Origin: a virus
Reading direction: 5' to 3' (one strand)
UHGV virus genome: UHGV-1464328
Length of the DNA stretch: 33,516 nucleotides
Below are positions 6,635-31,501 of the stretch, piece after piece. The number at the start of each line of letters is the position of its first letter. The stretch's first letter is position 1. Below the pieces are notes generated by a model, which did no database searches, was not told where the DNA came from, and saw only the letters and a list, made by a program, of their open reading frames with translations. A program made the position numbers and the translations under genes.

Positions 6635-6664
6635 AAAGGGACCTTCGGGTCCCTTTTTTGTTTT
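6635..6664 (+). terminator. Rho-independent terminator: aaagggacc-UUCG-ggtcccttt followed by a T run.
   Basis: Perfect 9-bp stem, UUCG loop, ttttttgtttt. Confidence 0.85.
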
Positions 6665-6669
6665 CCAAC

Positions 6670-6685
6670 GGTATTAAATAATACC
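6670..6685. promoter_or_regulatory. Inverted repeat GGTATTA-aa-TAATACC, 12 nt upstream of the ATG at 6697. It contains a TATTAAATAA late-motif variant.
   Basis: Seen in sequence. Resembles the TTATTAAATAC variant at 17236. Confidence 0.3.
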
Positions 6686-6696
6686 AGAGGTGAACA

Positions 6697-7110: not shown

Positions 7111-7111
7111 T

Positions 7112-13159: not shown

Positions 13160-13690
13160 TTATTTTTTCTCAAACATATTCAGTATTTCGTTATATACAT
13201 AATCATCTGATTTTAATAACTCAGGTACACTTCTGCGGTCTATGTGATTATCAGGATATCTATAGTATTCGCAAGGACAACCAGGTTCGCACTCATGCTC
13301 ACCAAGGAAATACTCTTTATCATAGACTTTCTTGCTTTCATCTATGAAAACATATTCAGTCATTGGCTTGGCAGAGGTTCCATCAAAATATTTCTTTTCT
13401 GAAATATCCATAGCGTTCCATTTTTCTGCGTTTTCTTTACTTATGTTAAACATTCTACGCACAGGATAATCATCGTATAGACCAAATCTGTAATTACCAG
13501 CTTCATCTAAGTAATAACGATGCGGGATGATTTCATTTTGATTTAAAGAAATCATTTCATCAAGTTCAGCTTTCCACTTAGGCATATTCTCAGTAGCCCA
13601 TTCAATCTCTAAAGTGTTCTTGTAGTAATTACAAGGACACGCAAGACCACATGAATGCTCACCCAGGTAGTATTCTTTTTCAGTTTTCAT
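13160..13690 (-). CDS. Cys-rich tandem-domain protein, 176 aa. Two copies of KEY(Y/F)LGEH-C-x3-C-P-C-xYY. Likely Zn-binding. Co-transcribed with the recombinase.
   Basis: N- and C-terminal 20-aa blocks are near-identical (EYYLGEHSCGLACPCNYY / EYFLGEHECEPGCPCEYY). Start overlaps the recombinase stop by 11 nt. Confidence 0.65.
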   Translation of the reverse strand: MKTEKEYYLGEHSCGLACPCNYYKNTLEIEWATENMPKWKAELDEMISLNQNEIIPHRYYLDEAGNYRFGLYDDYPVRRMFNISKENAEKWNAMDISEKKYFDGTSAKPMTEYVFIDESKKVYDKEYFLGEHECEPGCPCEYYRYPDNHIDRRSVPELLKSDDYVYNEILNMFEKK

Positions 13691-15197
13691 CAGAAGTTCC
13701 TTCTTTTAGTTTACGTAAATGCTCTTGTAGAGCTTTAGTATCTGCGTTTAACATTATCTTGCCGTTATTAACTATAAAGCTCTGATAATGCCCGTCAGTT
13801 TTTTCAATCTTAATCCTGATATTCTTAGGACCATTCAACTGAAAGATAGTTATTCTTTTAACTAACCGTTTTAGATATAGATTATACTGCTCGGCGTCTT
13901 TTATTGCAACCAATGTCTTGATATCAGCTGATTTTGGCGGTTGAACCTCTGGTTGCTCAAGAAGTTCTTGTAGTTCTTTCTCCAGCGTACTTATCGTTTT
14001 AAGTACAGAAACTGGAGGCATTTCCAATTCCAGAAGCATTTTGTTCAGTTGGTCTATCTTTTCACGCTTAGCTATTATCTGTTCATTCTTAATGTTCTTA
14101 ACTGAACGAGTTTTAATCTGTAGTTTATCAATAGCCTTTTCAAGAGGTATATGAAGGTCTCTAATAGCTTTGTTGTTCTTGCACCTGCCTTCAAATGAAC
14201 CGAAGCAATTAAAGTACTGGTACTCTTTAATTCCTTTTTTAGTTACTGATGTATTAACTTTCCTGCACAGAACAGCACCGCATTCACAATAAAGAACACC
14301 ACTGAATTTGTGTCTTGACGGTCGTCCTTTTGATACTCGTTTATCATCAAATTGAATTTGTGAAAATGTTTGATAATCAATCAGGGCAGGGTAGTAGTTT
14401 TCAATCAATGAAACAGGAATGTATTTTTCTTCAATAATCTGGTGTGTCTGATAAGCTCCGTAAAGAACTGGGCTTTTTAACAACCTCTTTACTGACATCT
14501 GGTACCATTGTTTTCCAGTTGGACCAGGAATGTTTTCTTCATTTAGTATGCGGGCAATCTTTCTAACGCCTTTTCCTTCAAGACGCATTTGAATAATTTT
14601 TCTCGCTAAATCAACACGTTTGTTGAACACGTACTTTTTGTTCTTCCTGTCATAATCAAGATAGAACACTGACTTACCGGGAAGGATTTCGCCATCAGCA
14701 GCTTTTTCACGGGCAATAGCCTTTGAAGCTTTAACAAGTTTTGATTTTCTTAATGACTCCTTGTGAGCTAAGTCAGCTGCTAGCGCAACTAATATCACTG
14801 AGCTTAAATCGTTCAAAGAGTCTTTGTTGAGGATATGTCCTTGAAGTGTTTTGGCATCTTCACCAACGAACGCGACCTTAACGTCGTACTGAAGGATTTT
14901 CTTCAGGATGTCTTGTGTATGGCTGATTCCTTTACGACTTAATCGGTCAATCGCCTCAATCAAGATATAACTGCCTGATGGGATATCACCAGTTTGAATG
15001 GCTTCAAGCATTTGCTCTAGCTCTGGGCGTCTGACGTTTTTGAACCCTGAGATGCCCAGGTCATGATAAGACTGATTGGACAGAGTTAGTCCATTTTGTG
15101 AACAGAACAGCTTAGAAGCATTTACCTGCCGTTCTAACGAAGTACCTGACGCTTGGTGCTTGGTACTGAACCTTACGTAACTGAATGCCAGTGTCAT
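13680..15197 (-). CDS. Large serine recombinase, 505 aa (resolvase catalytic domain, recombinase domain, Zn ribbon, coiled coil).
   Basis: N-terminal AFSYVRFSTKHQ is the YxRVSTxxQ catalytic-Ser motif. The recombinase core follows, then CECGAVLC...NCFGSFEGRCKNN, a Zn ribbon. Strong RBS GGAGG. Confidence 0.9.
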   Translation of the reverse strand: MTLAFSYVRFSTKHQASGTSLERQVNASKLFCSQNGLTLSNQSYHDLGISGFKNVRRPELEQMLEAIQTGDIPSGSYILIEAIDRLSRKGISHTQDILKKILQYDVKVAFVGEDAKTLQGHILNKDSLNDLSSVILVALAADLAHKESLRKSKLVKASKAIAREKAADGEILPGKSVFYLDYDRKNKKYVFNKRVDLARKIIQMRLEGKGVRKIARILNEENIPGPTGKQWYQMSVKRLLKSPVLYGAYQTHQIIEEKYIPVSLIENYYPALIDYQTFSQIQFDDKRVSKGRPSRHKFSGVLYCECGAVLCRKVNTSVTKKGIKEYQYFNCFGSFEGRCKNNKAIRDLHIPLEKAIDKLQIKTRSVKNIKNEQIIAKREKIDQLNKMLLELEMPPVSVLKTISTLEKELQELLEQPEVQPPKSADIKTLVAIKDAEQYNLYLKRLVKRITIFQLNGPKNIRIKIEKTDGHYQSFIVNNGKIMLNADTKALQEHLRKLKEGTSDEN

Positions 15198-15985: not shown

Positions 15986-16009
15986 AAGGGACCTTGCGGT
16001 CCCTTTTTA
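15986..16009. terminator. Bidirectional terminator hairpin aagggacc-TTGC-ggtccctt plus ttttt. It is the inverted copy of the 13136 hairpin and the right boundary of the island.
   Basis: Same stem and flank (AAATAAA..GGGACCGCAAGGTCCCTTA) as 13131-13156, in reverse complement. Confidence 0.75.
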
Positions 16010-16666
16010 TTTGACTGACGTCCAACGTGCTTCACTATTCCACTTACCAATTCGAGCAAAGAAACTGTCATTTTCATTACCCGGATAAGCACGATGGACA
16101 CCATCTGATGCGTGATTACGAGCTGATTTTTCAAGTACAGCCCAGATACTATCTAAAGTTGCTTCTGTTTCGTTCTTACATTCTGCGTCATTATAATCAA
16201 GTTGAATGCTTAACTTATCAATGACTCCAGTAAAGATGTTAAAACTCGTCTGAACTGAACCATTGTTTGGGTTAATAAAACCAATATCAATTTTTACTTC
16301 AGAGTTATCAAGAGCTTTAGAACGAATAAGGCTGATATACTCAGTACGCACGTTTGATAGACGGACTGTCATACCAATGTTATTAATCTCTTTACTTTCT
16401 TGAATAGTACTAATGTCTGTAAAATCACCAGTAGCAAGATAAGTCTTTCCTTGATATTGAACATCAAAGTAAGCATCCGTAATGAGTAGTTCTTGATTAT
16501 CATGAGTTTTGATGCTTACGAAGTGGAACAAAGTACCAACAGAAAATAACTGGCTAAGACTTAGCGAAGTAACGCTAGTTCCATTAAAATCGTTATATGC
16601 ACTGATAAAATCAGGGTTCTTGCATAACTCATCAAATCTTTGTTTGATATTATTAATCTCAGACAT
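16007..16666 (-). CDS. Tail tip protein, lambda gpL-like (tentative), 219 aa.
   Basis: The block YQGKTYLATGDF...IGMTVRLSNV resembles lambda L QGRQYQPYPIQGSGFE...PTLTVSNLYG. Coupled (TAATG) to the upstream M-like gene. Confidence 0.45.
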   Translation of the reverse strand: MSEINNIKQRFDELCKNPDFISAYNDFNGTSVTSLSLSQLFSVGTLFHFVSIKTHDNQELLITDAYFDVQYQGKTYLATGDFTDISTIQESKEINNIGMTVRLSNVRTEYISLIRSKALDNSEVKIDIGFINPNNGSVQTSFNIFTGVIDKLSIQLDYNDAECKNETEATLDSIWAVLEKSARNHASDGVHRAYPGNENDSFFARIGKWNSEARWTSVK

Positions 16667-17226
16667 TAGATGTTCTCCGTTGCTGTGAATGATATTTTAC
16701 TAATGCTTTTCAAATCGTAAGGTATAGAGTCATTTGTCAGAATAAACTCACCGCGAGGGTTCTGATATTTAACAGTCTCACCATTCTGAACGTTCTTTAT
16801 TAAAGCAGGGAATAACTTCATTGGTTTTCCTGAAACAACATCTTCAGTTACAGTATAAAGTTTTTTATGATTTTCAAACTGTACGATAGTCCCGGTCTCT
16901 AATGTACCAGTGAAACCATTAACTACCACCTGACGAGCACCAGGTTGAAGTGTTTGAGTAGATTTAACAGAACCACGAGCTGTACCTGTGTATTGACCAG
17001 CATAGCTGATATTAAATTCAAAAGGACGTCCATACATATGCTTGGCAATAAAGTTCTGAACAATAGAAGTGTCATTTGACATATAGTTAGCGCTAAAGTC
17101 CAAACTATAGTACTGAACACCTGTGTATCTTCTTTGATATTTTCCTGATACTGCTCTGTTACCGAAGAACGGAGCGTTAGACGTTAGTTTAACGTCAGAT
17201 ATTTTAACGTTAGTGTTAGATAACAT
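16666..17226 (-). CDS. Minor tail protein, lambda gpM-like (tentative), 186 aa.
   Basis: FFGNRAVSGKYQRRYTGVQYYSLDFS...HMYGRPFEF follows the pattern of lambda M FGDGYSQRAPAGLNANLKTYSVTLS...HGGWKSFLW. RBS AAGAGG. Confidence 0.4.
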   Translation of the reverse strand: MLSNTNVKISDVKLTSNAPFFGNRAVSGKYQRRYTGVQYYSLDFSANYMSNDTSIVQNFIAKHMYGRPFEFNISYAGQYTGTARGSVKSTQTLQPGARQVVVNGFTGTLETGTIVQFENHKKLYTVTEDVVSGKPMKLFPALIKNVQNGETVKYQNPRGEFILTNDSIPYDLKSISKISFTATENI

Positions 17227-17230
17227 AAGA

Positions 17231-17280
17231 GCCTCTTATTAAATACGTATACAAATCTATTTAATAAGAAAATAAGAGGC
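17231..17280. promoter_or_regulatory. Compact bidirectional control palindrome. Mirrored RBSs (AATAAGAGGC on each strand) flank divergent late-like motifs: CTTATTAAATAC (+, 17236-17246) and CTTATTAAATAG (-, 17257-17267).
   Basis: gcctcttattaaatacgtatacaaatctatttaataagaaaataagaggc lies between the minus ATG at 17226 and the plus ATG at 17284. Confidence 0.5.
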
Positions 17281-17283
17281 CGT

Positions 17284-17769
17284 ATGACATTATATGAAAT
17301 GCTCCGCTTTGATGAAGGCGAGAAACTACAAGTTTATAAAGACACCGAAGGATATTGGACTATTGGTATTGGTCATTTATTGACTAAGAACCCATCTAAG
17401 GAACAAGCCATCGCTTGTCTTGATAAAGAACTAAAACGAGTTACTTCTGGCGTTATCTCAAAATCAGAGTCAGAACAGCTGTTCAATCAGGACACCTCTA
17501 GGGCACTCCAGGACATTTCCCGCTCAGAATTGAGTTCCATATACATTCAAATGAATGGACCTCGTAGGGCTGCTCTGGTGAACATGGTGTTCCAGTTAGG
17601 GCTCACTGGTGTGTTGAAGTTCACTAAGATGGTTAAGTACCTCAAAGCACAAAATTATGAAGCAGCTGCTGATGAGTCATTGGATAGTCGTTGGGCAAGA
17701 CAGACACCTAATCGTGCTCGTCGTGTATCTGAGGTTATTCGGACAGGAACCTTTAGTTCTTACAGTTGA
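17284..17769 (+). CDS. Endolysin, T4 lysozyme (GH24) family, 161 aa.
   Basis: [35 protein letters not shown] matches T4 e [35 protein letters not shown]. Glu11, Asp20 and Thr26 are conserved. C-terminal NRARRV matches NRAKRV. Confidence 0.95.
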   Translation: [161 protein letters not shown]

Positions 17770-18511: not shown

Positions 18512-20776
18512 ATGGCACGTTCTAGATATGACGTAGAAATTAATGGCGACAACAAAGGTCTAACAACGGCCGTTAATAAATCTATGGATGAACTGAACAA
18601 ACTCAATGAGGTCGCCGGAGGGTTGTTCAGTAATTTAACCGGACCACTTGGTAGTCTCCAGGGTGGTATTAACACCATCAACACAATGAACCCTGCTTTA
18701 CGTGCTCTTGGCGTAGCAGGGTTAGCGGCTGGTGCTGGACTCGCAGCAATCAATAAAGCAGCGGATACAGTTAATACGCTTAATCAGATTAGTACAAACA
18801 CAGGTGTATCTGTTGAGATGCTTCAAAAACTCCAGAATCAGTTCAAAGATACTGGGATGGAAGCTGAGAAGTTCGGTGATATCAACAAAGATGCAATGGA
18901 TAAACTTGGTGACTCATTCAGAAACGGTGGCGGTGGCGTAGCTGATGACCTGAAAGAATGGGGTATAGAACTACAAGAATATACCAAATATGCTGGTGAT
19001 GCTGAAGGTGGTATCAAAGCTGTAATTGATACTTTCTATAAAATGAAAGAAGCTGGTAAATCTCATGCTGAAATCACTAACGCAATGGAAACAATGGCGA
19101 GTGATTCAAGTCATTTAATTACGACTCTTGAGAAGTACAGTTCTACACAAGAAGCCCTTAACAGTATTAATAGACAACACGCTAATATTACTAAAGAAAC
19201 TTCTGAGGAATATAAGAACTTCCAGAAGAACATCAACACCTTGAATAATAATATTCAGGACTTAACTGTTCAAGCTGTAACTCCATTAGTTGCTGAAATC
19301 AATGACCTTTGGTCGTTGTTTAACAAAGAGTGGACCAAGAGCGATATCATGGACGCTCTTAAACAGTTCTGGTACGGCGGTGATACGGCTATTGCAAAGC
19401 TTAACCGTTGGGTTGATGGCGTTGATGAAGAAGGATATAGCACAGCTTCTAAGCAACGCGCCGCAAATCTTAAACAGATGGCAGCTGATTTAGCTAGTGA
19501 TGTTAAAACATCTGTTGACCAAGCCGAAGAAGCAACTGCTGCTCAGAAGAACATCCTTAAGAAACAGCAAGAAGAAAAAGATAAAGCTGATGCTAAGGCT
19601 AAAGCCGCGCGTGATAAGGCTCTTGCTGACGCTAAGCGTAACGCAGCTGAGCAATTAAGAGTTCAACAAGAACTTCTTAAAGGTCTACAGTCATTATCTG
19701 AGTCTTCGTCTGGTGCTAATCTGATTGATTATAACGCTGAGGGAATTAAGTTAATCCAGAACGTTAACACTCAGGCAGAGTTATTCAAAAATATAATGAA
19801 GAACCTCACTGACGAGTATAAAAATTCGTTCAGAGAAATGAGTGGTAAAGAACTTGGTGATAGTCTTACTAAGTTAAAAGACTATTACAGTACTCGCGAG
19901 TTACTTCTTAAACAGTCTCTTGAAAATCAGAAAATCGCTCAGAAGCAGTACAATGAAGAAGTTCAGAGAATGCAGGCTGAACAGAAAGCTATTGAAGATG
20001 CTCAACAAGGGATAGATGGAAAAGGAAATCAACTAAAAGACCTGTCGAGTATTGGCTTTACTACTTCAGACGAAGAAATTCAGCTCCAGCAGCAGAAACT
20101 TCATGAGCAATTCCAGATGATGTACGAGAACAACCAGTCGATGTATGAAGCTGGTCTGGTACAGCATGATGATTTTCTTAAACAGAAACAACGTCTTGAC
20201 CAAGCGTATGCTATTAAATCTCAAGCTATTGAACGTCAATCTGCACAGCAGAAACTTCAAATCGCTAATGATTTAACTTCTGGCATAAGCTCGGCTATGA
20301 CAGGTATGTTAGGTGAGAACAACAAAGCTGCTCAAGCAATGTTTGCAGTGTCTAAAGGAGTGGCTATTGCAAATGGTATGATGAACGCTCATGAGTCTGC
20401 TACGACTGCTATGGCCAAATATCCAGGACCACTAGGGTATGCGCTCGCAGCTTCATCATACGCTCGTGTTCTTACTGAAGTAATGCAGATGAAATCTATG
20501 TCTCTCGGTCAATTCCATGATGGTATCGATAATGTTCCTAACACAGGTACTTATCTGTTACAAGAGGGTGAGCGAGTAGTAGATAATCGGTTGAACCAAG
20601 ACCTAAAAGACTTCTTAGGCAAACAAGAAACTGGAAAAACAGACAGTCAACCAATCGATGCATCTATCAATATCAGTGGTTCTGTTAATGGTGAACGTGA
20701 GTTAATGCAGATAATGAAACGTCAACAAAAAATCCTAGCTGATATTGTTCAAGATGCTAATCGGCGTAGAATGTAA
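18512..20776 (+). CDS. Tail tape measure protein, 754 aa.
   Basis: Position after the G/GT pair. Long Ala/Gln/Lys/Glu-rich helical central region (AKAKAARDKALADAKRNAAEQLRVQQELLK). Gly-rich N-terminal part. RBS AAGGTGG. Confidence 0.8.
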   Translation: MARSRYDVEINGDNKGLTTAVNKSMDELNKLNEVAGGLFSNLTGPLGSLQGGINTINTMNPALRALGVAGLAAGAGLAAINKAADTVNTLNQISTNTGVSVEMLQKLQNQFKDTGMEAEKFGDINKDAMDKLGDSFRNGGGGVADDLKEWGIELQEYTKYAGDAEGGIKAVIDTFYKMKEAGKSHAEITNAMETMASDSSHLITTLEKYSSTQEALNSINRQHANITKETSEEYKNFQKNINTLNNNIQDLTVQAVTPLVAEINDLWSLFNKEWTKSDIMDALKQFWYGGDTAIAKLNRWVDGVDEEGYSTASKQRAANLKQMAADLASDVKTSVDQAEEATAAQKNILKKQQEEKDKADAKAKAARDKALADAKRNAAEQLRVQQELLKGLQSLSESSSGANLIDYNAEGIKLIQNVNTQAELFKNIMKNLTDEYKNSFREMSGKELGDSLTKLKDYYSTRELLLKQSLENQKIAQKQYNEEVQRMQAEQKAIEDAQQGIDGKGNQLKDLSSIGFTTSDEEIQLQQQKLHEQFQMMYENNQSMYEAGLVQHDDFLKQKQRLDQAYAIKSQAIERQSAQQKLQIANDLTSGISSAMTGMLGENNKAAQAMFAVSKGVAIANGMMNAHESATTAMAKYPGPLGYALAASSYARVLTEVMQMKSMSLGQFHDGIDNVPNTGTYLLQEGERVVDNRLNQDLKDFLGKQETGKTDSQPIDASINISGSVNGERELMQIMKRQQKILADIVQDANRRRM

Positions 20777-21512: not shown

Positions 21513-21923
21513 TTAACTGACTTTGCAGTTGTTAAGATAAACAAAACTCATTGTAGTCAAATTATCATGCATATACATTCTATCGGTGCCTTTGGCGTGT
21601 TTAAGATACCCACCAGAGCTATTGCTTGATTGGCCTACGGAATCTGAAAAACCCATTAAATTTGAGAAGCCTACAAACATAAACCCAGATTTGTTAATAA
21701 CATCTGATGAGCTAATCGAGTAGTTAAACCATAAGTAATGGTCATGTACTACAGCTGTGTCATATACAGGTTCTGCTTCTAGGTTGTGCATGTCTTTAAT
21801 TGTCGCATCGCATTGATAAGTTCTTGGTTTACCCGCCATGAATGCGAGGCCGATAGCACCTGCAATAACTATAGTGACAAGAGTCTTAATGGAATTTGAT
21901 TTTACGTTCTGACTGATGTTCAT
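21513..21923 (-). CDS. Periplasmic signal-anchored (or secreted) protein, 136 aa. Candidate superinfection-exclusion or host-surface-modifying moron.
   Basis: N-terminal KTLVTIVIAGAIGLAFMAG is a hydrophobic signal. Strong RBS AAGGAG. Has its own sigma70-like promoter. Ser/Asn-rich. Confidence 0.65.
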   Translation of the reverse strand: MNISQNVKSNSIKTLVTIVIAGAIGLAFMAGKPRTYQCDATIKDMHNLEAEPVYDTAVVHDHYLWFNYSISSSDVINKSGFMFVGFSNLMGFSDSVGQSSNSSGGYLKHAKGTDRMYMHDNLTTMSFVYLNNCKVS

Positions 21924-21945
21924 TTTGTTCTCCTTGTGTGTGCGT

Positions 21946-21974
21946 ATAATAATACATTTAAATAAAATCGTAAA
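21946..21974 (-). promoter_or_regulatory. Sigma70-like promoter on the minus strand: -35 TTTACG, 17-nt spacer, -10 TATTAT. About 23 nt upstream of the ATG at 21923.
   Basis: Reverse complement of 21946..21974. Confidence 0.4.
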
Positions 21975-22045
21975 CTTCTATTATCTTCCATTGTTCGCGA
22001 AGCAGTGATTTTTTAAAACAGTTTTAATTGAATCTATTGAGATCA

Positions 22046-22078
22046 AAGCTTTAATCAGAGACACTCTGATTAAAGCTT
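22046..22078. repeat. Perfect 15-bp inverted repeat, AAGCTTTAATCAGAG-aca-CTCTGATTAAAGCTT. Candidate protein-binding palindrome, possibly a cos- or terminase-associated site.
   Basis: Seen directly, about 210 nt upstream of the Nu1-like gene. Confidence 0.7.
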
Positions 22079-22228
22079 ATGTCGCAGGAAATGCATAATT
22101 ATTTTGGGGCACGATAAGAAGCGGGATGTTTCGGGACCGCATCCTTTAGTTGACCTGTAAAATTTTAATTCCATTGCAATTCAAGTTGGACTCCGGGGTT
22201 TACAGTCTCGTGAAATCATAGACACACG

Positions 22229-22240
22229 TTAATAAATATC
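22229..22240 (+). promoter_or_regulatory. Late-promoter-like motif TTAATAAATATC, 47 nt upstream of the ATG at 22288.
   Basis: Family consensus. Confidence 0.5.
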
Positions 22241-22287
22241 GTAGGTGTACTAAGTTATTAATTTAAATAAACTACTGGAGAAATTCT

Positions 22288-22812
22288 ATGGCTCGAAAAA
22301 AATATGTCTCGATGGCCGATATGGCTCGTCGTTATGGTTATACATTTAACGCGATTAAAGCATGGCGCGCCGAGGGTCTACCGTACTCTGAAAGTCCTAA
22401 CGGAATTCCTGAAGATGAAGGTACGCAGTGGATTATCAAAAATAAAATTGAACCGCTTCGTAATACTTCAGTTAAAGAGGAGATGGATCTTGAAAAACTC
22501 CGAGAACAAAAAGCTAAAGCTGACCTAGCTCAGTACGCTGCTCAAGAAAAATCAGGCGAGTTAATCTCAACCGATTATGTTCAATCAGAGCTTAATAAGT
22601 TCTGTGCTAACCTAAAAGATACGTTAAGACTTATTCCTTCAAAACACGCGATTGATTTGATTGAACACGCTGACTCTGTTGATGACCTCAAACAACGACT
22701 GCGTGAAATCATCGATGAAGAACTGCTAAAGGTATCAGAGCTGTTTGAGCCTGAACTTGAAAATGATGAAGAGTCAATGGTGATATCACCATTGACTTTT
22801 GATGACAACTAA
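22288..22812 (+). CDS. Small terminase subunit candidate, lambda Nu1-like N-terminal winged HTH, 174 aa.
   Basis: MADMARRYGYTFNAIKAWRAEGLP matches lambda Nu1 LADIFGASIRTIQNWQEQGMP. Coiled-coil middle and acidic C-terminus. RBS GGAG. Confidence 0.5.
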   Translation: MARKKYVSMADMARRYGYTFNAIKAWRAEGLPYSESPNGIPEDEGTQWIIKNKIEPLRNTSVKEEMDLEKLREQKAKADLAQYAAQEKSGELISTDYVQSELNKFCANLKDTLRLIPSKHAIDLIEHADSVDDLKQRLREIIDEELLKVSELFEPELENDEESMVISPLTFDDN

Positions 22813-22829: not shown

Positions 22830-23576
22830 TTATGGCTGTGTTGCATTTTTATTTTCGTAATCAATAACGATTTCTTCTATTGCTTTGATATAACGTTCAA
22901 ATTCACTAATGACATACGGAAGAAAATCATTGCGCATTATAACAGTATCATAGTCATTAACTTCAATTCCCTGCGCTCTTCGTATAGATTTTAATAGCCG
23001 TTTCTCTTTATCTGTTTTCTTTGTTTTTTTATCTAGTGTTTCATTGTATTTTTCGGCTATACCATCATTATGAACCATAATGTTTCTCAATATTGTGAGA
23101 TGATCTGTGTCTGATAAATTTTTCGCACCGTATACTTTTTTTAGTATTTCTTGAGTTTTTTCAATAACACCCTTATTTTTGAGTTCGTCATTGTAATTGC
23201 TACGGGTTTTCAAAAAATCAAGACATCCAATCATGCGATGTTCAAATAATCCATAGATGGTAAGAAAGGCCGAACGTCGAGTAAGTTGGGTTATTAAATG
23301 CTTATACTCAGATTTTACTTCATCGTAATCAGGACCGATACATGAACCACATTCATAGTAAGTTGCTAGAAATGTATGCCATTCGCCATCAGTATCGCAG
23401 ACCTCATCGGGATACTCTCCTTCATGAACAGCCCCAGGTTGATCTGCTTCCTTAACAGCGAGAGCTATATTCTTTTCTGCTTGTTCCGCGAGCATCGTCA
23501 TCACACGAATAGAAGATGATGCTTCCCACAATTGAATTTTTATTAGAATATCTTTCATTGTTTTAATTGTATCCAT
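22830..23576 (-). CDS. Hypothetical protein, 248 aa. Cys cluster (VCDTDGEWH...ECGSC) and a C-terminal RNIMVH (Rx4H) motif.
   Basis: ORF only. No family recognised by eye. Confidence 0.55.
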   Translation of the reverse strand: MDTIKTMKDILIKIQLWEASSSIRVMTMLAEQAEKNIALAVKEADQPGAVHEGEYPDEVCDTDGEWHTFLATYYECGSCIGPDYDEVKSEYKHLITQLTRRSAFLTIYGLFEHRMIGCLDFLKTRSNYNDELKNKGVIEKTQEILKKVYGAKNLSDTDHLTILRNIMVHNDGIAEKYNETLDKKTKKTDKEKRLLKSIRRAQGIEVNDYDTVIMRNDFLPYVISEFERYIKAIEEIVIDYENKNATQP

Positions 23577-25441: not shown

Positions 25442-25471
25442 TATTATCTCCAGTCAATTTTTTGACATAAG

Positions 25472-25500
25472 CTTTAAAAAAGAACCTCTCCGAAGAGAGG
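25472..25500 (-). terminator. Minus-strand rho-independent terminator cctctc-UUCG-gagagg followed by UUCUUUUUU.
   Basis: Reverse complement of aaaaaagaacctctccgaagagagg. It lies upstream of the HTH gene, so it terminates transcripts coming from the control region. Confidence 0.6.
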
Positions 25501-25569
25501 GGTTATACAACACATAGTGTTAATAGAGTAATTATATCAAAGATATCTTAAAGCAAATAACCTTTAATA

Positions 25570-25715
25570 TAAAATCTATATTTCATTATTTTAAAAATGA
25601 AACGTTTATTTTAGCGGTTTTGGCGTTTTATTTCATTTTCGGATACAGGTACCATTTATTTCGGCAAATGTTTCAGTCGTTTTCCTAAATGAAATGTTTT
25701 ATTTCATTTTCATCA
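25570..25715. repeat. Cluster of TTTCATT / AATGAAA repeats, including inverted pairs and TTTTATTTCATTTTC x2.
   Basis: tttcattattttaaaaatgaaa; ttttatttcattttc (25629 and 25697); aaatgaaatgttttatttcattttc. Confidence 0.65.
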
Positions 25716-25733
25716 GCAGTACTGATTACAGAT

Positions 25734-25743
25734 ATATTTATTA
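25734..25743 (-). promoter_or_regulatory. Late-like motif on the minus strand (GTAATAAATATATC), with no ORF downstream.
   Basis: Plus-strand atatttatta. Points leftward into the repeat region and the 25472 terminator. Confidence 0.4.
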
Positions 25744-25799
25744 CACTGATTTTTCGTCTTATCGTTAGAAATTGATTTGTTCATTAATTAATCACTCTG

Positions 25800-25815
25800 C
25801 CCGGCCGAAGCCGGG
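25800..25815. other. GC hairpin cccggc-CGAA-gccggg (UUCG loop on the minus strand) in the non-coding region.
   Basis: Seen directly. Confidence 0.5.
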
Positions 25816-25973
25816 TCTTATGAGCTTAACAACAGGAGAACTACCGACGAACGGTGAACACAACCACTAAGGATTACCATAAAGGGCTCTCCGCCAAAAG
25901 AACCCTTGAGTTAATACCTATGGAATCTCAATCTTTAACAACGCTAAGGACCACCACAATCCTTGATACAATT

Positions 25974-25983
25974 ATATTTATTA
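25974..25983 (-). promoter_or_regulatory. Second minus-strand late-like motif (CCGTAATAAATATAAT) in the non-coding region.
   Basis: Plus-strand atatttatta. The extended match resembles the 31505 copy. Confidence 0.4.
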
Positions 25984-26065
25984 CGGTGTTTAGCACCCAT
26001 TTTAGATGCACTCAATCAAAACGAATAAGTGTCACGAGGTTAAGATGCAACTTCTGTCATTAGTT

Positions 26066-26235
26066 TTGACATCAGAAATTGCATTATATTTTGTGCAAGT
26101 TGTTGAGTTTTAAACACATTTCATAACTATGGGATTCAGATTATACAAATTTGACATCTCAAATACCATAGAAATTGCATAGTGCAATTTGTCCAGGAAA
26201 ATGCAATTTCTGAACTGAAAAATGCAATTTGTCCA
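26066..26235. repeat. Iteron/operator array. Five copies of AAATTGCAT / ATGCAATTT in both orientations, including the palindrome AAATTGCAtagTGCAATTT. TGCAATTTGTCCA occurs twice. TTTGACATC occurs twice.
   Basis: 26076-84, 26172-80, 26182-90, 26201-09, 26222-30. TTGACA at 26066 and 26151. Confidence 0.7.
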
Positions 26236-26398
26236 TCAAAAACAGCTACTAAGTTATTGAGATTAAAACAATTGTTGTCCCTTTAAATATAGTCTAACCT
26301 TTGTTTTCAAGTAGACTTTCAACAATGAACCACAGAAAAGTGGTCCATTATTCCAAGTAACTTTCAATACAAACTTCTAACGAAGTTCCACCAAAAAG

Positions 26399-26514
26399 AT
26401 TGTGAAACTCCGCCCGAAGGGCGGATAGACTAATAGTTTTATAAACCAATGGTGAAAAGCCAGTACAGAAACAAAGACTATCGTCGAGGCTAAAGCCTCT
26501 CCGAGTTTCACAAT
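26399..26514. other. About 116-nt element closed by a 12-bp perfect long-range inverted repeat (ATTGTGAAACTC ... GAGTTTCACAAT). It encloses two hairpins (ccgccc-gaag-ggcgg and gaggct-aa-agcctc). Candidate structured RNA or cruciform DNA site.
   Basis: Seen directly. Confidence 0.5.
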
Positions 26515-26555
26515 TGTTCTTTAACTATCTTTGTTTGAAGTACTACCAGAATTAT

Positions 26556-26627
26556 CCAGATTAAATCTGGTACCAGACTAGTTCCAGTCTTTATATTTCC
26601 ATTCCAAACCAGTTAAATCAATCTGGA
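26556..26627. repeat. CCAG-box repeats. CCAGATTAAATCTGG (7-bp arm palindrome) and CCAGTTAAATCAATCTGG about 53 bp apart. Nine CCAG in about 120 bp.
   Basis: Seen directly, about 300 bp upstream of the HNH-terminase operon. Confidence 0.6.
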
Positions 26628-26738
26628 TGCATTCCAGAACATCTAGTACAACAACCAGTTTCTATCTTGTTTCTCCACGAGCAAGCTCGTTCCGAAACGA
26701 CGCTTCGCGTCTACTTGTTATTTGCTATAAAAACTTGT

Positions 26739-26747
26739 TGGTATAAT
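26739..26747 (+). promoter_or_regulatory. Extended -10 promoter TGGTATAAT (no good -35), directed toward the HNH/terminase genes.
   Basis: Perfect TATAAT with a TGn extension. Confidence 0.4.
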
Positions 26748-26866
26748 GGTTTTAGTCCTTCCAATTAATACTAATCAGACTGGTAATAGATAGACCAGAT
26801 AGATTAGCCAACCAGATTGTGCTTTAGCACTACTTCTAGTTAAAGCAATTCCGTTCATTTCCAACG

Positions 26867-26876
26867 TAATAAATAC
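26867..26876 (+). promoter_or_regulatory. Late-promoter-like motif TAATAAATAC, 30 nt upstream of the HNH ATG at 26907.
   Basis: Family consensus. Confidence 0.5.
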
Positions 26877-26906
26877 CTGTATCAAATCAACTAACAAACA
26901 ACAGGT

Positions 26907-27413
26907 ATGAAAATGTCTAAATCTTATAACTCTATTCCATATTCTCTGGTAGAAAAGCTCTTCGTAATTGACTCATCTTCCAAAACTGGTATTGCTTGGA
27001 AAAAGAATTCCCGTCCTGCTGGTACAGTTCTTCCAAGTGGTTATTGCCAGGTTCGTGTTCCTTCTTCTGATAAGAACTTATTCGTTCATACACATCGTAT
27101 TGTATGGATGCTCGCAAATAAAAAAGACATTCCAGATAAGTCTTATCACGTTGACCATCTTGATTTTGACCGTACAAATAACCGTCCTGAAAATCTTCGT
27201 CTGATTAAACGTTATTGGAATATCACTCGTCGTCAAGATAAAAAATCTGATGGTCTTCCTTCTAATATCTACAAGAAAGCTGATGGTAATTTCTTTGCTC
27301 AGTTTAGTTTTGAGGGCAAAGGATATCGACACGATGATGAGTCAGTCCAGAAATGCCAAGAATGGTTAGATAAAAAACGTGCTGAAGTTATCGGCATAAT
27401 GGAAGAATTCTAA
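26907..27413 (+). CDS. HNH endonuclease, 168 aa. Terminase-associated (cos-cleavage helper) type, judged by its position.
   Basis: HVDHLDFDRTNNRPENLRLI is the HNH motif. Sits directly upstream of the large terminase. Confidence 0.85.
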   Translation: MKMSKSYNSIPYSLVEKLFVIDSSSKTGIAWKKNSRPAGTVLPSGYCQVRVPSSDKNLFVHTHRIVWMLANKKDIPDKSYHVDHLDFDRTNNRPENLRLIKRYWNITRRQDKKSDGLPSNIYKKADGNFFAQFSFEGKGYRHDDESVQKCQEWLDKKRAEVIGIMEEF

Positions 27414-27550
27414 TGACAACAATAATTATTGGAGCCATCGCATTCGGTGGCTTGTTTATTGCTGATTACGTCAAATTTAAACTACTTGATAAACGCCTCA
27501 AAATCGTTGAGGCGAAGCTTGGACTAAATGAACAGACAAAAACTTCTTAA
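27413..27550 (+). CDS. Small TM ORF, 45 aa (MTTIIIGAIAFGGLFIADYV...). It overlaps the HNH stop (TAATG) and the terminase start. Coding status uncertain.
   Basis: Hand-translated. Not in the ORF track (<60 aa). Confidence 0.25.
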   Translation: MTTIIIGAIAFGGLFIADYVKFKLLDKRLKIVEAKLGLNEQTKTS

Positions 27551-29438
27551 GATAATTAAAAAATCCAGACAGTTTATTCTACCGCCTCCTGATTACACTC
27601 CTTCTGAATGGGTTGAACATAATCTTATATTCCCTGATGGTCCATACGCAGGGCAACCAATGAAATTGTTTGAATTTCAGAAAGGGATGATAGATGTAGT
27701 TAAAGAACGTAAACGAAAAATTGTATTCGAGACTTCTGCCCAAATCGGCAAGACAACCATCCTGAACGGGATTTTGTTCTACAAATCTGCTAATGACCCA
27801 GGAAACGCAGGGGTACTTCAATCAACTGGTAAAGAAACAGGCCAATGGTTAGCAGGCAAGATACGCCCAATGATTGATGCATCACCAGAGATGCAGAAAA
27901 TCGTAACTGATAAGAATGACCGTAACGCAGTCAATAACGGTTCTCAGATTCAGTTAAGGACTGGTGGGTTCTGGTACTTCATGAGTTTGAACTCTCCTAG
28001 CCATCTTCGCGGTAAGACACTTCCTCTTATTCTTATGGATGAAGTGGACGCAGTTGAAACTGATACTGACGAAGGGAACCCGATCGTTATAGCTGAAAAC
28101 CGCGCAACAACGTTCGGTGAAGACGCTCGTATCTTTATTAGTTCTACGCCTACTTCTAAGCATGGAGCTATCCATACACAGTACGAAGCATCTGATAAGC
28201 GTAAGTATCACGTCCCATGTCCTAGTTGTGGTCATTATCATGAACTCATCTGGGAAAACGTTAAGTTTTCTTGGGTAAAAATTGACGGTAAGTCTGTTCC
28301 TGATACAGACAGCGTATATCTGGAATGTCCAGAATGTGGTCATCATATCTCTGATGGTGAACGAGCTAGAGCAGTTAAGAACGGGCAATGGGTGATTACT
28401 CAGCCTGACTCACGAATTGCTGGGTTCCATATCTCACGGCTATACAGCCCGATGAGTTCTTTACGCTCTGTGATGGAGGACTATAAGCAAGCGTGGCAAT
28501 CGTTCAGTTTATCAACTTTCTATAACACTGTTCTTGGCTTGCCGTTTGACGATCTAAACGAAGACGTAGAGCTATACAAGTTAGAGAAATTAAAAACCGA
28601 CGTTGGAGTGAACAACATCCCAGATGATGTGTTGTTCCTCACGGCAGGAGTTGACCAACAGCAAGACCGCTTAGAAGTTACGTTGCTCGGACACTCAGAA
28701 AAAGCTCTGTACATCATCTGTCACCGTAGCTTCATGACCATGAACGCTGAAGTTATTGAGAGCCCGGCATATAGAGATTTACTGGCATTCTTAAAGGCAC
28801 CGTTTAGAACGGTCTCTGGCCGTAGAGTAACTATGGCTTGGGCTAACGTTGACTCCGGTAATGGACGTGCAACTAAAACAATCTACAGGTTCTGTTCTCA
28901 GTGGAAGCATCTACACGCTATTAAAGGTTCAAGTTCTGTTGACGCACCTTATGTACCAACCAAAGAGTCGAAATCAGGTGGTTATCGTCTGTTTATGATT
29001 GGTGTCAACAAAGGCAAAGACCTTATCAGGGAATTGATAGTTCGTAATACGTCAACAACATTACAGACGCCTGTACATCTCGAAATATCCGATCAGGAAG
29101 TACCTGATGATTATCTTGAGCAATTAATGTCTGAAGAACTTAAACGTTCAGGTAATACAGTTCGTTGGACAGTTAAACCGGGCGGTGTACGAAATGAAGC
29201 ATTGGACTGTATTAACTATGGCTATTGTGCTCGTCTGCAAGTTATTGAACAAATCAAATGGCATGAGTGGCGGAAGATAGTTGCCAAACAGACAATCGAC
29301 GATACACCAGATGCATCAGAAACGATTGAGCCTGAACAGTTAATAGAAACCATACCTGAACAAAAAGAAACGCCTAGAAAGGCTATAGTTAAACGTAGAG
29401 TAGTAAAACCGTCTCGTCCAAGAGGTTTCGGTCTGTAA
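27528..29438 (+). CDS. Terminase large subunit, 636 aa.
   Basis: Walker A-like FETSAQIGKTT and Walker B LPLILMDEVD. Size. Flanked by the HNH and portal genes. Cys pairs CPSCGH / CPECGH. Confidence 0.9.
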   Translation: MNRQKLLKIIKKSRQFILPPPDYTPSEWVEHNLIFPDGPYAGQPMKLFEFQKGMIDVVKERKRKIVFETSAQIGKTTILNGILFYKSANDPGNAGVLQSTGKETGQWLAGKIRPMIDASPEMQKIVTDKNDRNAVNNGSQIQLRTGGFWYFMSLNSPSHLRGKTLPLILMDEVDAVETDTDEGNPIVIAENRATTFGEDARIFISSTPTSKHGAIHTQYEASDKRKYHVPCPSCGHYHELIWENVKFSWVKIDGKSVPDTDSVYLECPECGHHISDGERARAVKNGQWVITQPDSRIAGFHISRLYSPMSSLRSVMEDYKQAWQSFSLSTFYNTVLGLPFDDLNEDVELYKLEKLKTDVGVNNIPDDVLFLTAGVDQQQDRLEVTLLGHSEKALYIICHRSFMTMNAEVIESPAYRDLLAFLKAPFRTVSGRRVTMAWANVDSGNGRATKTIYRFCSQWKHLHAIKGSSSVDAPYVPTKESKSGGYRLFMIGVNKGKDLIRELIVRNTSTTLQTPVHLEISDQEVPDDYLEQLMSEELKRSGNTVRWTVKPGGVRNEALDCINYGYCARLQVIEQIKWHEWRKIVAKQTIDDTPDASETIEPEQLIETIPEQKETPRKAIVKRRVVKPSRPRGFGL

Positions 29439-29471: not shown

Positions 29472-29954
29472 ATGATTAAAGAAATTTTCATCGGTGAATT
29501 ACTCGAATTAACTAATCCTGCTAACGCTTCTGTTCAGATAGGTTCTAAAGAACTTGTTCTGTTCGAACAAAAACAATGCCCGAAGAATATCCGGGTAGAA
29601 ACTACTGATTTCACAGAAGGTACATTCTCTGTTGTTGTACTTAATGACGGTCAGTTAATTTCTAATGAGTTAATTAAAGTTAAATCACCGTTTATTGGGA
29701 AGACTAAAAAAGAACAACTGCGAGAAATGATTAATGACCTTGATAAAGTCATTCAGTATCGCCTGACTAATAATGAAGAAGCAATTCAACAGATGAGTAT
29801 TAACGGAAAATCTTTCGTATATGAAACTCTTGAAGCTTTGATGAACACCCGTAAGAAATTAGTAGCTAATCTGGCGAATATCATTAAGTCAGAAGACCTC
29901 GCTAAAGGGAAGTCTCCTATTTTAACAATCAAGGCAAGGTTTAGAAACGCATGA
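29472..29954 (+). CDS. Hypothetical protein, 160 aa, between the terminase and the portal.
   Basis: RBS GAGGAA. Stop overlaps the portal start (ATGA). Confidence 0.65.
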   Translation: MIKEIFIGELLELTNPANASVQIGSKELVLFEQKQCPKNIRVETTDFTEGTFSVVVLNDGQLISNELIKVKSPFIGKTKKEQLREMINDLDKVIQYRLTNNEEAIQQMSINGKSFVYETLEALMNTRKKLVANLANIIKSEDLAKGKSPILTIKARFRNA

Positions 29955-31501
29955 AATTATTCTCCAGAAAGAAAACTACTGTTAAGAAAGTAAGAAAATC
30001 ACCTAAATTGGTCATTGATAATTCAAAATCGTTTGAAAAAGGTCTTGATACTCGCCAACTTGGTCCACGTATTGACCGTTTAAGTGGTGATTTTGAAGAA
30101 AACCTAATTCGTACAGCAACTATTAACAACGAAATTCGTTCTTCAGGAGATAATCTGAGGGCGATGTCTCGCACGCTGTCAATTAATACTCCTTATGGTA
30201 AACGAGCTGTACAGTATCAGGTTGATAACGTAATTGGTGAAGGTATTAATCCGCAACCACGTATCATTGATCGTGATGGACGTCCTAAAAAAGACTTGAA
30301 CAGTCTTATTGCTGATAGTTTTGAGTACTGGGCTAGTTCTCCTAAACGATTCAGTAGAAACAAACGATTGAACTGGCGCCGTTTCCAGGAGCTAGTTGAA
30401 CGAGCTCGTGTAGTAGATGGTGAAGTGTTTATTCGCATTCACGAAGAAGTTGACTCACTTCGTATTGAACTAATTGAAGCTGCTCGCTGTAAATTCGGTG
30501 ATAGAGAAAAAACTGAAGACGGTTATATTCTCGATGGTATCGAATATGACGAAGATGATGCTCCGATTAGATATTGGTTTACTGATATCGATAAAATGAC
30601 TCAGACTGAAAAAGGTGGTTCATATTCAGTACCTGCTGAAGATATTATCCATTACTACAGAGAGTTATTCCCAGACCAACGACGCGGTATTCCTGAAGCT
30701 GTTGCAATCATCGCAACAATGAACCAATACGATGCGTTCAGTCACGCGACTTTAGTACAGAAACGTGCTGCTGCTAGTTCTATGGGTTTTATTACTCAGG
30801 ATAAAGATGGACAAGAAGATATCGACCTTGGACTTGAAGAAAAAGAGCATGATGGTGAACAACCTGATGTTATTCAAGACTTTGAGTCTGGTACTATCCA
30901 TAAACTTCCTGCTGGTCACGATATTAAACAGTTCAGCGCAACTCAAGGTGGTGATGATTTCATTAGCTTTACCGATCGATTAGAGGACCAACTTGCTATG
31001 GGTTATGGCTTCTATAAGCAAGGATGGAAAGGCGATACAGCTAATATCAACTACTCTGCTGCACGATTTGGCGATCAAGCTCAACGTAAGATGTTTAAGA
31101 CTGTTCAACAGAATTTAAAAGAACAAGTCTTTGAAGTTATCTACGAACGTTGGTTAGCGTGGGCAATTCTCAATGAGACTATCCAAGTTAAGATGACGAA
31201 TATTCCAAGCATTCTTCGTCAGACTATCTGGACATATCCAAAATGGGAAAGCATTGACCCGCTTAAAGATACTCAGAAAGACCAGCTTGATGTTGATAAT
31301 GGTTTTAAATCTGCGTCTGACGTAATTATTAGTCGTGGTGAAGACCCTGAATTGGTATTTGCTCAGATTGAACAAGAGCGTTCTCGTTATGTTCCTAAAC
31401 ACGCAAATCAAATCGATATCGCTAAAGCTCCTGCTGAGGTTACTGCTGGTGCTCAAGTAGAAGTAGCTGAGATTAATTCTGATTCAAGCACTGACGAGTA
31501 A
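29951..31501 (+). CDS. Portal protein, 516 aa.
   Basis: Size and position between TerL and the prohead protease/capsid gene. Basic N-terminus, acidic C-terminal tail. Lambda-B-like features are tentative. Confidence 0.75.
   Translation: MKLFSRKKTTVKKVRKSPKLVIDNSKSFEKGLDTRQLGPRIDRLSGDFEENLIRTATINNEIRSSGDNLRAMSRTLSINTPYGKRAVQYQVDNVIGEGINPQPRIIDRDGRPKKDLNSLIADSFEYWASSPKRFSRNKRLNWRRFQELVERARVVDGEVFIRIHEEVDSLRIELIEAARCKFGDREKTEDGYILDGIEYDEDDAPIRYWFTDIDKMTQTEKGGSYSVPAEDIIHYYRELFPDQRRGIPEAVAIIATMNQYDAFSHATLVQKRAAASSMGFITQDKDGQEDIDLGLEEKEHDGEQPDVIQDFESGTIHKLPAGHDIKQFSATQGGDDFISFTDRLEDQLAMGYGFYKQGWKGDTANINYSAARFGDQAQRKMFKTVQQNLKEQVFEVIYERWLAWAILNETIQVKMTNIPSILRQTIWTYPKWESIDPLKDTQKDQLDVDNGFKSASDVIISRGEDPELVFAQIEQERSRYVPKHANQIDIAKAPAEVTAGAQVEVAEINSDSSTDE

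Follow-up and report, generated by a model that had tools for sequence, protein, structure and literature searches.

We find that the 33,516-nucleotide virus genome UHGV-1464328 (hereafter the window), which comes from a temperate enterobacterial phage, encodes a distant small terminase (TerS) of the lambda Nu1 type, and that a short, strongly conserved segment of noncoding DNA upstream of its gene, at 22096-22184, is a candidate cos site. We estimate a probability of about one half that this block is cos and that the protein is a Nu1 homologue working with the lambda-type (GpA) large terminase (TerL) encoded ~5 kb away. A search for cos within the window is best directed at the 364-bp intergenic region upstream of TerS (21924-22287). 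The window comprises most of the genome, lacking the DNA that joins the capsid gene to the tail genes, and belongs to a prophage group found in Klebsiella, Raoultella, Enterobacter, Escherichia, Pantoea and Serratia; for this uncharacterised group, TerS and the sharply defined candidate block provide a directly testable packaging site.

The TerS gene (22288-22812, plus strand) starts with ATG, preceded by a GGAG ribosome-binding site at 22277-22280, and encodes 174 aa, in which an N-terminal winged helix-turn-helix (wHTH, ~aa 1-45) leads into a long helical region and then a disordered, acidic tail. The protein matches PHROG 57 over aa 4-162 (profile positions 10-182 of 199, E=7.3e-20), the family that lambda Nu1 itself matches best (E=1.3e-76), and hhalign aligns the TerS family profile to Nu1 with 91% probability (E=1.1e-6) over 112 columns that span both the wHTH and the helical region. 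The match to the Pfam Phage_Nu1 model (PF07471) covers only aa 65-118 (E=0.024) and, at 14.7 bits, falls short of the cut-off of 30. A search of PDB sequences with the TerS profile returns RppC (E=1e-5, aa 1-41) and Nu1-type DNA-binding domains (0.02-0.06), and nothing beyond these. An AF2 model with pLDDT of 76-87 across aa 1-50 gives 7lw0, 6hn7_B and 1j9i as the top three PDB matches in Foldseek (probability 0.87-0.99; TM 0.61-0.71 on the target), all of them Nu1-type wHTH domains and the same chains matched by the profile search. The Nu1 winged-HTH signature proposed in an earlier sequence-only reading is real and weak at the sequence level, with PHROG 57, profile-profile and fold comparisons in agreement, and TerS is a distant Nu1-type small terminase that falls outside Pfam's curated boundary. 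Its predicted role is to bind cosB and to assemble with TerL for cutting and packaging. All named homologues are annotated as "hypothetical" by pipelines, which would therefore report these prophages as having no small terminase. Within the final TerS codons, at 22773-22800, lies a perfect 24-bp palindrome (GTCAATGGTGAT/ATCACCATTGAC) followed by TTTT, which we infer probably terminates transcription where TerS and the leftward gene at 22830-23576 converge.

TerS presumably acts together with a TerL of the lambda gpA type (27528-29438, plus strand; Pfam GpA_ATPase 7.6e-61, GpA_nuclease 9.3e-45), to which the cutting of cos would fall. The gap between the end of TerS at 22812 and the start of TerL at 27528 measures 4,715 bp, matching the 4.7 kb first reported, and it is occupied, in line with the accessory and control region described before, by a leftward cluster of six genes, ahead of which TerS is the last rightward gene, and by a 1.4-kb ORF-poor control region (25465-26906) packed with repeats and GC-rich hairpins. 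A GpA TerL and a TerS homologue occur together in every locus long enough to hold both (12 relatives), and their separation is kept in 12/12 relatives whose fetched DNA includes both, at 5.1-6.9 kb start to start, so that we regard it as a lineage trait; the nu1-A arrangement, with TerS directly upstream of or overlapping TerL, is found neither in the window nor in these 12 relatives. It had been suggested that a cos site here would explain the apparently scrambled module order by placing the genome ends within the window. Moving the ends does not explain it, because the separation is a lineage trait unchanged on a circular map: whatever the position of the ends, TerS stays ~5 kb from TerL. 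The splitting of the tail module is tied to the position of attP and the integrase (crossover at ~15259) and to module shuffling between relatives. Pfam, PHROG and inspection of the gene list reveal no alternative TerS candidate adjoining TerL: the sole contenders, a 45-aa membrane-like ORF (27413-27550) and a 160-aa head-tail joining protein, were rejected. An HNH_3 endonuclease gene (26907-27413, plus strand; Pfam HNH_3 4e-12) lies directly upstream of TerL in the window and is present in relatives L009, L011 and L014. The idea that it is a fixed packaging partner of TerL had to be dropped because it is missing upstream of TerL in L012 and L013, and the gene is optional and probably mobile. 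A Peptidase_S78-capsid fusion gene comes after the portal gene, and the portal is of the lambda family.

The intergenic region divides TerS from a divergent minus-strand ORF (21513-21923), which encodes a small membrane-anchored two-cysteine protein of a fast-evolving accessory family and has no Pfam, PHROG or NCBIfam match. Two features of this region had been put forward as marking a possible cos, a 33-bp palindrome at 22046-22078 and a GC-rich patch, and both are present. As candidates for cos we keep the region and the patch, gggatgtttcgggaccgcatcc (22123-22144, in DNA with a regional GC content of ~0.37), which is the centre of a gap-free conserved block at ~22096-22184, but hardly the palindrome, discussed below. 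From an alignment of 18 distinct upstream regions and a register table of 19 loci, we find the block in 19/19 upstream regions tabulated, with its invariant core 131-207 nt upstream of the TerS ATG; in the window the block lies ~100-190 bp upstream of the TerS start. An alignment of 116 columns from 12 loci contains zero gaps.

The common layout, read on the plus strand, is TAGTTACTYTGGGRC, 11 nt, CGRGATGTTTCG, 12 variable GC-rich nt, a T run and then ...TTCArTTCA. Block A (22096-22110) reads TAATTATTTTGGGGC where the family consensus is TAGTTACTYTGGGRC, and its spacing to block B (22122-22133, CGGGATGTTTCG) is fixed. Block B, the proposed left flank of a candidate cleavage site, contains the octamer GATGTT(T/A)C (22125-22132), invariant in all relatives, and its 9-mer core, GATGTTTCG, is single-copy in the window. 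The GC-rich dodecamer that comes next, GGACCGCATCCT (22134-22145), is variable and gives way to the conserved T run; it may be the cohesive-end segment. Across 19 relatives, the 12-mer following GATGTTTCG has a GC content of 0.50-0.75, compared with 0.32-0.42 for their upstream regions. A variable sequence between two conserved flanks, as seen at these 19 loci, is compatible with a cut site and not specific to one. Block C (22159-22184, AAAATTTTAATTCCATTGCAATTCAA; family ...TTCArTTCA) is possibly the start of a cosB-like TerS-binding region.

The block is also found in DCP80, whose TerS and TerL are 33% and 50% identical to those of the window. A literature search for DCP80 returned nothing relevant, and the record resembles a chimeric scaffold; we therefore do not treat it as an independent real genome and use it only as a distant copy of the TerS-plus-block module. 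When the window is compared by blastn with five diverged relatives, the block and a 35-nt stretch at 25879-25913 are all the noncoding DNA between TerS and TerL that is still detected in Pantoea L011, and the four relatives more distant than L011 give only coding matches between the two genes. Upstream of TerL, no comparable conserved noncoding block is seen among the relatives compared. RNAalifold detects no conserved fold in the block (-0.5 kcal/mol, no covariation), and Rfam yields no match at gathering thresholds, with chance-level matches only at E<1. We conclude that the block is conserved, unique and not an RNA element.

Searches outside the group returned little. Megablast of the region against phage genomes gives no match, and neither does a distant blastn search of phages and plasmids with the block; a scan of GTDB representative genomes gives one near-identical contig only, in a MAG. 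No contig end falls at the block in exact-protein contig look-ups, among IMG/VR relatives or in pattern scans of viral and metagenome contigs, the matches in these scans being mostly chance and inside ClpP-like coding sequence. By eye, the block resembles the left flank of lambda cosQ/cosN (ATCACTTTACGGGTCC...GGTTACG/GGGCGGCGACCT), a likeness that we set aside; an unbiased nhmmer search of circularised lambda with a 98-position block family profile did not match cos (best E=1.3, elsewhere), and we therefore claim no homology to it. Reading the GC-rich patch as a terminator also fails, since the patch also persists at loci with a divergent upstream gene, the window among them, where there is nothing to terminate. 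Sigma-54 and sigma-70 promoter readings of the block were rejected on a misfit, by eye, of spacing and consensus across relatives, and a sigma-70 scan finds no promoter-like site inside it. In the upstream region we could define neither R-like TerS repeats nor an IHF site, and the DNA around the GC-rich core is not clearly two-fold symmetric; between the block and TerS there are only short repeats (TTCA pentamers, 8-12-nt pairs), none of them convincing.

Downstream of the block, the promoter-like motif TAATAAATAT (22230-22239, plus strand) precedes the TerS start codon by 49 nt (22239 to 22288). This is the "late motif" of the sequence-only reading. TAATAAATAY has 10 exact matches in the window, where 0.34 would be expected; seven are on the plus strand, and the six of these with a listed gene start nearby sit ~25-60 nt upstream of it. 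The structural genes and TerS carry the same motif, and an ATAAATA-type motif precedes TerS in most relatives. None of the other nine copies has a block alongside (the core 9-mer being single-copy), and the block is therefore not a general promoter accessory.

We propose that TerS, a distant Nu1 homologue made from a stand-alone gene with its own TAATAAATAY promoter-like motif, would work with the lambda-type TerL encoded ~5 kb off, and that the block, DNA of a fixed-spacing, protein-binding type, would be cos. Next to the invariant GATGTTTC, TerL would place its nicks within the GC-rich dodecamer or just beside it, and the TerS wHTH would bind the DNA between the block and the TerS gene; we infer the identity of the block as cos, the nick positions and the place of TerS binding alike. 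The lambda order of lysis genes, cos and Nu1 would thereby be kept, with the TerL-to-tail block on the other side of the circle.

The palindrome, foremost in the sequence-only reading, might itself be cos or a packaging signal, which we consider extremely improbable. It is statistically exceptional: its arms, 22046-22060 (AAGCTTTAATCAGAG) and 22064-22078 (CTCTGATTAAAGCTT), are complementary at 15/15 positions around a 3-nt loop (ACA), none of the other local inverted repeats in the window is as long, and the region, folded as single-stranded DNA, reaches -16.9 kcal/mol (z=-6.2), a value matched by 0/200 shuffles. It lies 210 bp upstream of TerS, between the minus-strand gene and the conserved block. 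The two closest relatives have kept it, L008 (with the loop flipped from ACA to TGT) and L018. Conservation in these two only makes it unlikely to be an essential part of cos. Other dyads take its place in Klebsiella and Pantoea, and there is none in E. coli and Enterobacter, where the TerS wHTH is nearly the same, or in Serratia and DCP80. A dyad occurs at this position only in relatives with the divergent membrane-protein gene upstream (L012 has this neighbour and no dyad), and the palindrome is AT-rich, unlike known cohesive-end cores. The palindrome is a lineage-specific dyad outside the conserved block and more likely serves to regulate or insulate the divergent gene.

There are three further readings. 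If the protein is TerS and the block is some other protein-binding site (an autoregulatory or other TerS regulator site, or a replication or recombination element), cos would lie in the control region at 25465-26906 or in the missing part of the genome. The failure of nhmmer to relate the block to lambda cos, the lack of recognisable R repeats, IHF site or dyad at the block, the richness of the control region in repeats and GC-rich hairpins and the absence of the capsid-to-tail segment from the window are all consistent with this reading, which we nevertheless judge rather unlikely: beyond the closest relative L009 the control region retains a single 35-nt stretch, seen in Pantoea L011, there is no noncoding conservation upstream of TerL, and the nine remaining promoter motifs have no such block, which is therefore not a general promoter accessory. 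To our knowledge, moreover, cos lies beside the terminase genes in every known cos phage, normally upstream of TerS. We find it improbable that the 174-aa protein is instead a MerR- or excisionase-like wHTH protein (a directionality factor for a large serine recombinase, or a transcription regulator) with the block as its operator. The wHTH fold is common to MerR and Xis-type proteins, which appear among the lower Foldseek matches, lambda Nu1 and the DCP80 homologue weakly match PHROG 66 ("excisionase and transcriptional regulator"), and the failed Pfam cut-off and the distance from TerL point the same way. However, the PHROG 57 match is near full length and the hhalign columns run well past the wHTH, and a GpA terminase, which in lambda needs Nu1, would be left with no other TerS candidate. 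TerL co-occurs in all relatives, the DCP80 block included, no integrase is annotated in the fetched parts of DCP80 (record positions 7790-8330 left out), and the promoter motif is that of the structural genes. Headful packaging, with the block or a site within TerS as pac rather than cos, is a still more doubtful reading. Sites of this kind often lie in or near TerS genes, but TerL has both GpA domains at high significance, characterised GpA-family terminases are, as far as we know, cos enzymes, and one relative's prophage is compact, at ~34.5 kb.

Comparison of the window with Klebsiella L009 adds a further observation to the reading of the block as cos. The TerL proteins are 98.6% identical and the 3' part of TerS, from ~22512, is ~100% identical at the nucleotide level, whereas identity drops to 40-65% in the part coding for the wHTH and in the proximal 100 bp upstream; the block forms an island of 65-75% identity within flanks of 40-50%. 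Packaging-specificity cassettes made up of cosB and the Nu1 N-terminus distinguish lambda from phage 21, and the window/L009 pattern is the one expected if the wHTH and its sites were swapped together while the TerL cut site was kept. Unlike the lambda/phage 21 case, there are two wHTH types and few sequences behind the pattern here. We tentatively suggest that the packaging-recognition half (cos, a private promoter and TerS) may be a self-contained module uncoupled from TerL, in which the wHTH and adjacent DNA are exchanged as a specificity cassette with retention of the TerL cut site, and that the window/L009 mosaic may be its first trace.

Of the known packaging systems, the best PDB sequence match to the TerS wHTH comes from RppC, a PICI "redirecting phage packaging" protein (PDB 6HLK/6HN7; PMC6739421), whose wHTH, like that of Nu1, is described as the domain recognising cosB. 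RppC belongs to a satellite and depends on a phage TerS, whereas the window has its own TerL, portal, capsid and tail genes and no second TerS, and the RppC match is confined to the wHTH, whereas that to Nu1 extends through the helical region. In HK97-type HNH-assisted cos packaging, the HNH gene is next to the terminase genes. The window is similar in having an HNH gene directly upstream of TerL and a Peptidase_S78-capsid fusion after the portal gene, but differs in that its HNH is of the HNH_3 type and absent in L012/L013, TerL is of the GpA type, and no conserved noncoding site adjoins TerL.

The closest likeness is to lambda itself, with a Nu1-family TerS carrying an N-terminal wHTH, a GpA TerL with ATPase and nuclease domains and a lambda-family portal. 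Lambda cosN lies 190 bp upstream of nu1 (lambda cos is summarised in PMC6739421), and the candidate site, with its GC-rich core, is found 130-210 bp upstream of TerS. DCP80 has the order lysis gene, site, TerS, which is directly that of lambda R/Rz, cos and Nu1; in the window a lysozyme gene lies on the same side, ~4.5 kb upstream of TerS. Unlike in lambda, no R1-R3 or IHF architecture is recognised and the block profile misses lambda cos, TerS has its own promoter motif, and TerS and TerL are 5-7 kb apart, with the leftward cluster and the control region between them. The arrangement shows that the adjacency of nu1 and A seen in lambda is not obligatory for GpA-type terminases; if the block is cos, the phage would otherwise have an ordinary cos-type packaging system, a variant of a known one.

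The 174-aa product of the + strand ORF at 22288-22812, confirmed by sequence check, is very probably a distant Nu1-family small terminase subunit (TerS), and the Nu1-type assignment made in the sequence-only reading agrees with PHROG 57, hhalign, PDB profile and fold matches alike. No Pfam family reaches E<0.01 (Phage_Nu1 gets 14.7 bits, the cut-off being 30); the protein matches PHROG 57, 'terminase small subunit', at 7e-20 over nearly its full length, a family that lambda Nu1 itself also matches (1e-76). We find that a profile of 18 homologues aligns with Nu1 across 112 columns in hhalign (91% probability, E=1e-6), spanning the winged helix-turn-helix (wHTH) and the helical region after it, and that this profile, run over the whole set of PDB sequences, retrieves ahead of noise only RppC (1e-5) and Nu1-type TerS DNA-binding domains (0.02-0.2). 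An AlphaFold model of TerS has a mean pLDDT of 73, with 76-87 in the first 50 residues, and its best three Foldseek matches in the PDB (7lw0, 6hn7_B and 1j9i) are all TerS wHTH domains. No second TerS candidate is found near the large terminase gene (TerL), and all 47 database homologues (47/47) are unnamed or 'hypothetical'. The protein is an unannotated distant Nu1-type TerS, correctly identified, in a position that is unusual but conserved. The last TerS codons, where TerS converges with the gene at 22830-23576, contain a perfect palindrome of 24 bp, GTCAATGGTGAT/ATCACCATTGAC, with TTTT after it (22773-22800); this is probably a terminator that both genes share and that the variable C-terminal tail of TerS has absorbed.

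The window amounts to essentially all of a metagenome scaffold of 33.6 kb (ENA ERZ28572947 BRIT16-1 scaffold_370) and contains the excised form of a temperate siphovirus-like phage, the capsid-to-tail segment of the genome being absent from it. An integrated copy, L004, lies in a 49-kb Logan contig; it is 99.3% identical to the window and departs from it at ~15259, beside a large serine recombinase gene (13680-15197, - strand), with bacterial genes following; this divergence places a putative attP next to the recombinase gene. Genes read rightward include those for tail fibres (806-11290) and for a lysozyme (17284-17769), then ORFs resembling tail chaperones together with a probable tape measure (18512-20776). 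Further right, an HNH_3 endonuclease gene (26907-27413) immediately precedes the GpA-type TerL (27528-29438), and a lambda-family portal (29951-31501) and a protease-capsid fusion that runs past the window end come after it. The E. coli PSS-15 relative is a ~34.5 kb prophage between ybiT and ldtB, and the TerS-upstream region is found in only 7 of 5,426 complete E. coli genomes.

A gap of 4,715 bp separates the end of TerS from the start of TerL, the wide spacing already remarked upon from the sequence. Among relatives fetched from Raoultella, Klebsiella, E. coli, Pantoea, Enterobacter and Serratia, along with IMG/VR prophage calls, GpA-type TerL lies 5.1-6.9 kb downstream of TerS in 12 of the 12 whose fetched DNA covers both genes, so the separation is a lineage trait. 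Gene-called relatives carry variable accessory genes (TIR, PIN, IS elements, small membrane proteins) left of the gap that precedes TerS, which is noncoding and 335-400 bp long in most cases (282 bp in locus L015, 607 bp in L012), and after TerS usually a convergent leftward cluster, reached in L015 only after two small rightward ORFs. The slot left of the gap (window 21513-21923; loci L009-L015) is an accessory hot spot, with TIR- or PIN-domain genes, IS2/IS3 insertions or fast-evolving small membrane-anchored proteins with two conserved cysteines. The HNH_3 gene is missing upstream of TerL in loci L012 and L013 and present in some relatives, among them L009, L011 and L014; it is therefore optional, and this pattern points to a mobile gene of the homing type more than to a part of the packaging machinery. 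Genome ends just upstream of TerS had been offered as the explanation for a scrambled module order, and this does not follow, since only the start of the linear map would move, and the leftward cluster and control region stay between TerS and TerL wherever the ends lie. The scrambling that remains reflects attP/integrase position and module shuffling between relatives. A divergent unit (Dit-like 186 aa and hub-like 219 aa / lysozyme; window 16007-17769 and equivalents in L010-L014) occurs in both orientations relative to integrase and TerS, and the tape-measure block adjoins TerS in some relatives, lies at the far prophage end in others, and follows attP in the window.

The 'late motif' TAATAAATAT does lie at 22230-22239, and TAATAAATAY has 10 exact copies in the window versus 0.34 expected, at 6113, 12789, 22230, 26867, 29436, 31505 and 32053 on the + strand and at 24375, 25734 and 25974 on the - strand (leftward). 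For the first five of these, and for a one-mismatch variant at 17767, a rightward gene begins ~25-60 nt downstream; no gene start is listed close to 31505 or 32053, and motif orientation matches the gene wherever a start is listed nearby. The motif is closer to the T4 late promoter TATAAATA than to a sigma-70 -10 element; the few leftward genes yielded no gp55-like factor. An ORF-poor 1.4-kb control region (25465-26906) separates the leftward cluster from the HNH/TerL operon, with arrays of short AAATTGCAT, ATTTCAT and CCAGA-type repeats, several GC-rich hairpins and a ~120-nt element (26399-26514) closed by a perfect 12-bp stem (fold z=-5.1). It has no Rfam match and, in the window, no repressor-sized ORF; relatives have extra genes there.

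The intergenic region 21924-22287 contains the perfect palindrome earlier put forward as a cos-region candidate (arms 22046-22060 and 22064-22078, loop ACA). It is real, non-random and lineage-specific: the longest local inverted repeat within the window, far beyond chance (DNA fold z=-6.2), it is kept only in the closest relatives, identically in L018 and with a flipped loop in Raoultella L008, where the arms are the same and the loop (22061-22063) reads TGT rather than ACA, a change that suggests inversion through the inverted repeat, not three point mutations. Klebsiella L009 and two Pantoea loci have different dyads at this position, and the upstream alignment shows none in E. coli, Enterobacter, Serratia or DCP80, an Escherichia phage record, though several of these share nearly the same wHTH sequence. 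Dyads are seen only in relatives with a divergent membrane-protein gene on the minus strand next door (L012, despite having one, lacks a dyad), and the most economical reading is a putative regulatory or insulating dyad of that gene. The TerS upstream region does hold a cos candidate, and the hypothesis should be moved off the palindrome and re-centred on the block around the GC-rich patch, which is present at 22123-22144 as described.

Alignment of 18 distinct TerS upstream regions reveals that this block, matching window 22096-22184, is conserved in every relative, unlike the palindrome. It reads, 5' to 3', TAGTTACTYTGGGRC, 11 nt, CGRGATGTTTCG, a variable 12-mer, a T run and ...TTCArTTCA, with GATGTT(T/A)C inside CGRGATGTTTCG invariant, the 12-mer at 50-75% GC against 32-42% in surrounding DNA, and a gap-free alignment of 116 columns in 12 loci. 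It stands upstream of the promoter motif and is missing next to the other copies of that motif; the core 9-mer of the block occurs once in the window, and the block is still recognisable in DCP80, where TerS is 33% and TerL 50% identical. Against L009 it forms a 65-75% identity island in surroundings of 40-50%. When five diverged relatives were compared by blastn, the block and a 35-nt segment (25879-25913) were alone among noncoding segments between TerS and TerL in still matching Pantoea L011, and in the other four, which are more distant, coding sequence alone matched. Upstream of TerL there is no noncoding element conserved in a comparable way, and the block shows no conserved RNA structure; R-type repeats, an IHF site and two-fold symmetry were sought around it and none was convincing, and none of the public contigs examined ends there. 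A by-eye likeness to lambda cos is statistically unsupported, as the block profile did not detect that site.

To our knowledge, characterised GpA-type terminases are cos enzymes, and a cos site is thus expected somewhere in this genome. In where it lies, in its fixed spacing, in occurring once and in its GC-rich core, the block matches what a cos site should look like. We infer, at even odds (probability about 0.5), that it is cos, with TerL nicking within or just alongside the GC-rich dodecamer 22134-22145, adjacent to the invariant GATGTTTC, and TerS binding between the block and its own gene. TerS is mosaic between window and L009 (window 22288-22430 versus L009 8001-8140): TerL is 98.6% identical and the 3' part of TerS (from ~22512) ~100% at the nucleotide level, while the wHTH-coding part and proximal 100 bp upstream are only 40-65% identical and the core block is kept. 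Divergence of the wHTH and proximal DNA beside a kept TerL and core block fits the cos proposal, and recalls the cosB-Nu1 specificity cassettes of lambda and 21.

The DCP80 record (GenBank PQ671644; L001/L002/L163/L164), 141 kb and labelled Straboviridae, combines T4-like genes in scrambled order with a 26-kb siphovirus-like block (1 to ~26.3 kb) related to the window; a 165-aa TerL fragment lies by the tail sheath and a major capsid gene by gp37, and the record looks like a chimeric scaffold rather than a single genome. In DCP80 the order lysis gene, candidate site, TerS equals the lambda order R/Rz, cos, Nu1. The window has its lysozyme gene ~4.5 kb upstream, separated by chaperone, tape-measure and accessory genes, and, unlike in lambda, the TerL-to-tail block is on the other side of the circle. 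A summary of how lambda cos is built, and of what Nu1 and gpA do, is given in PMC6739421. The arrangement is a variant of a well-known packaging system.
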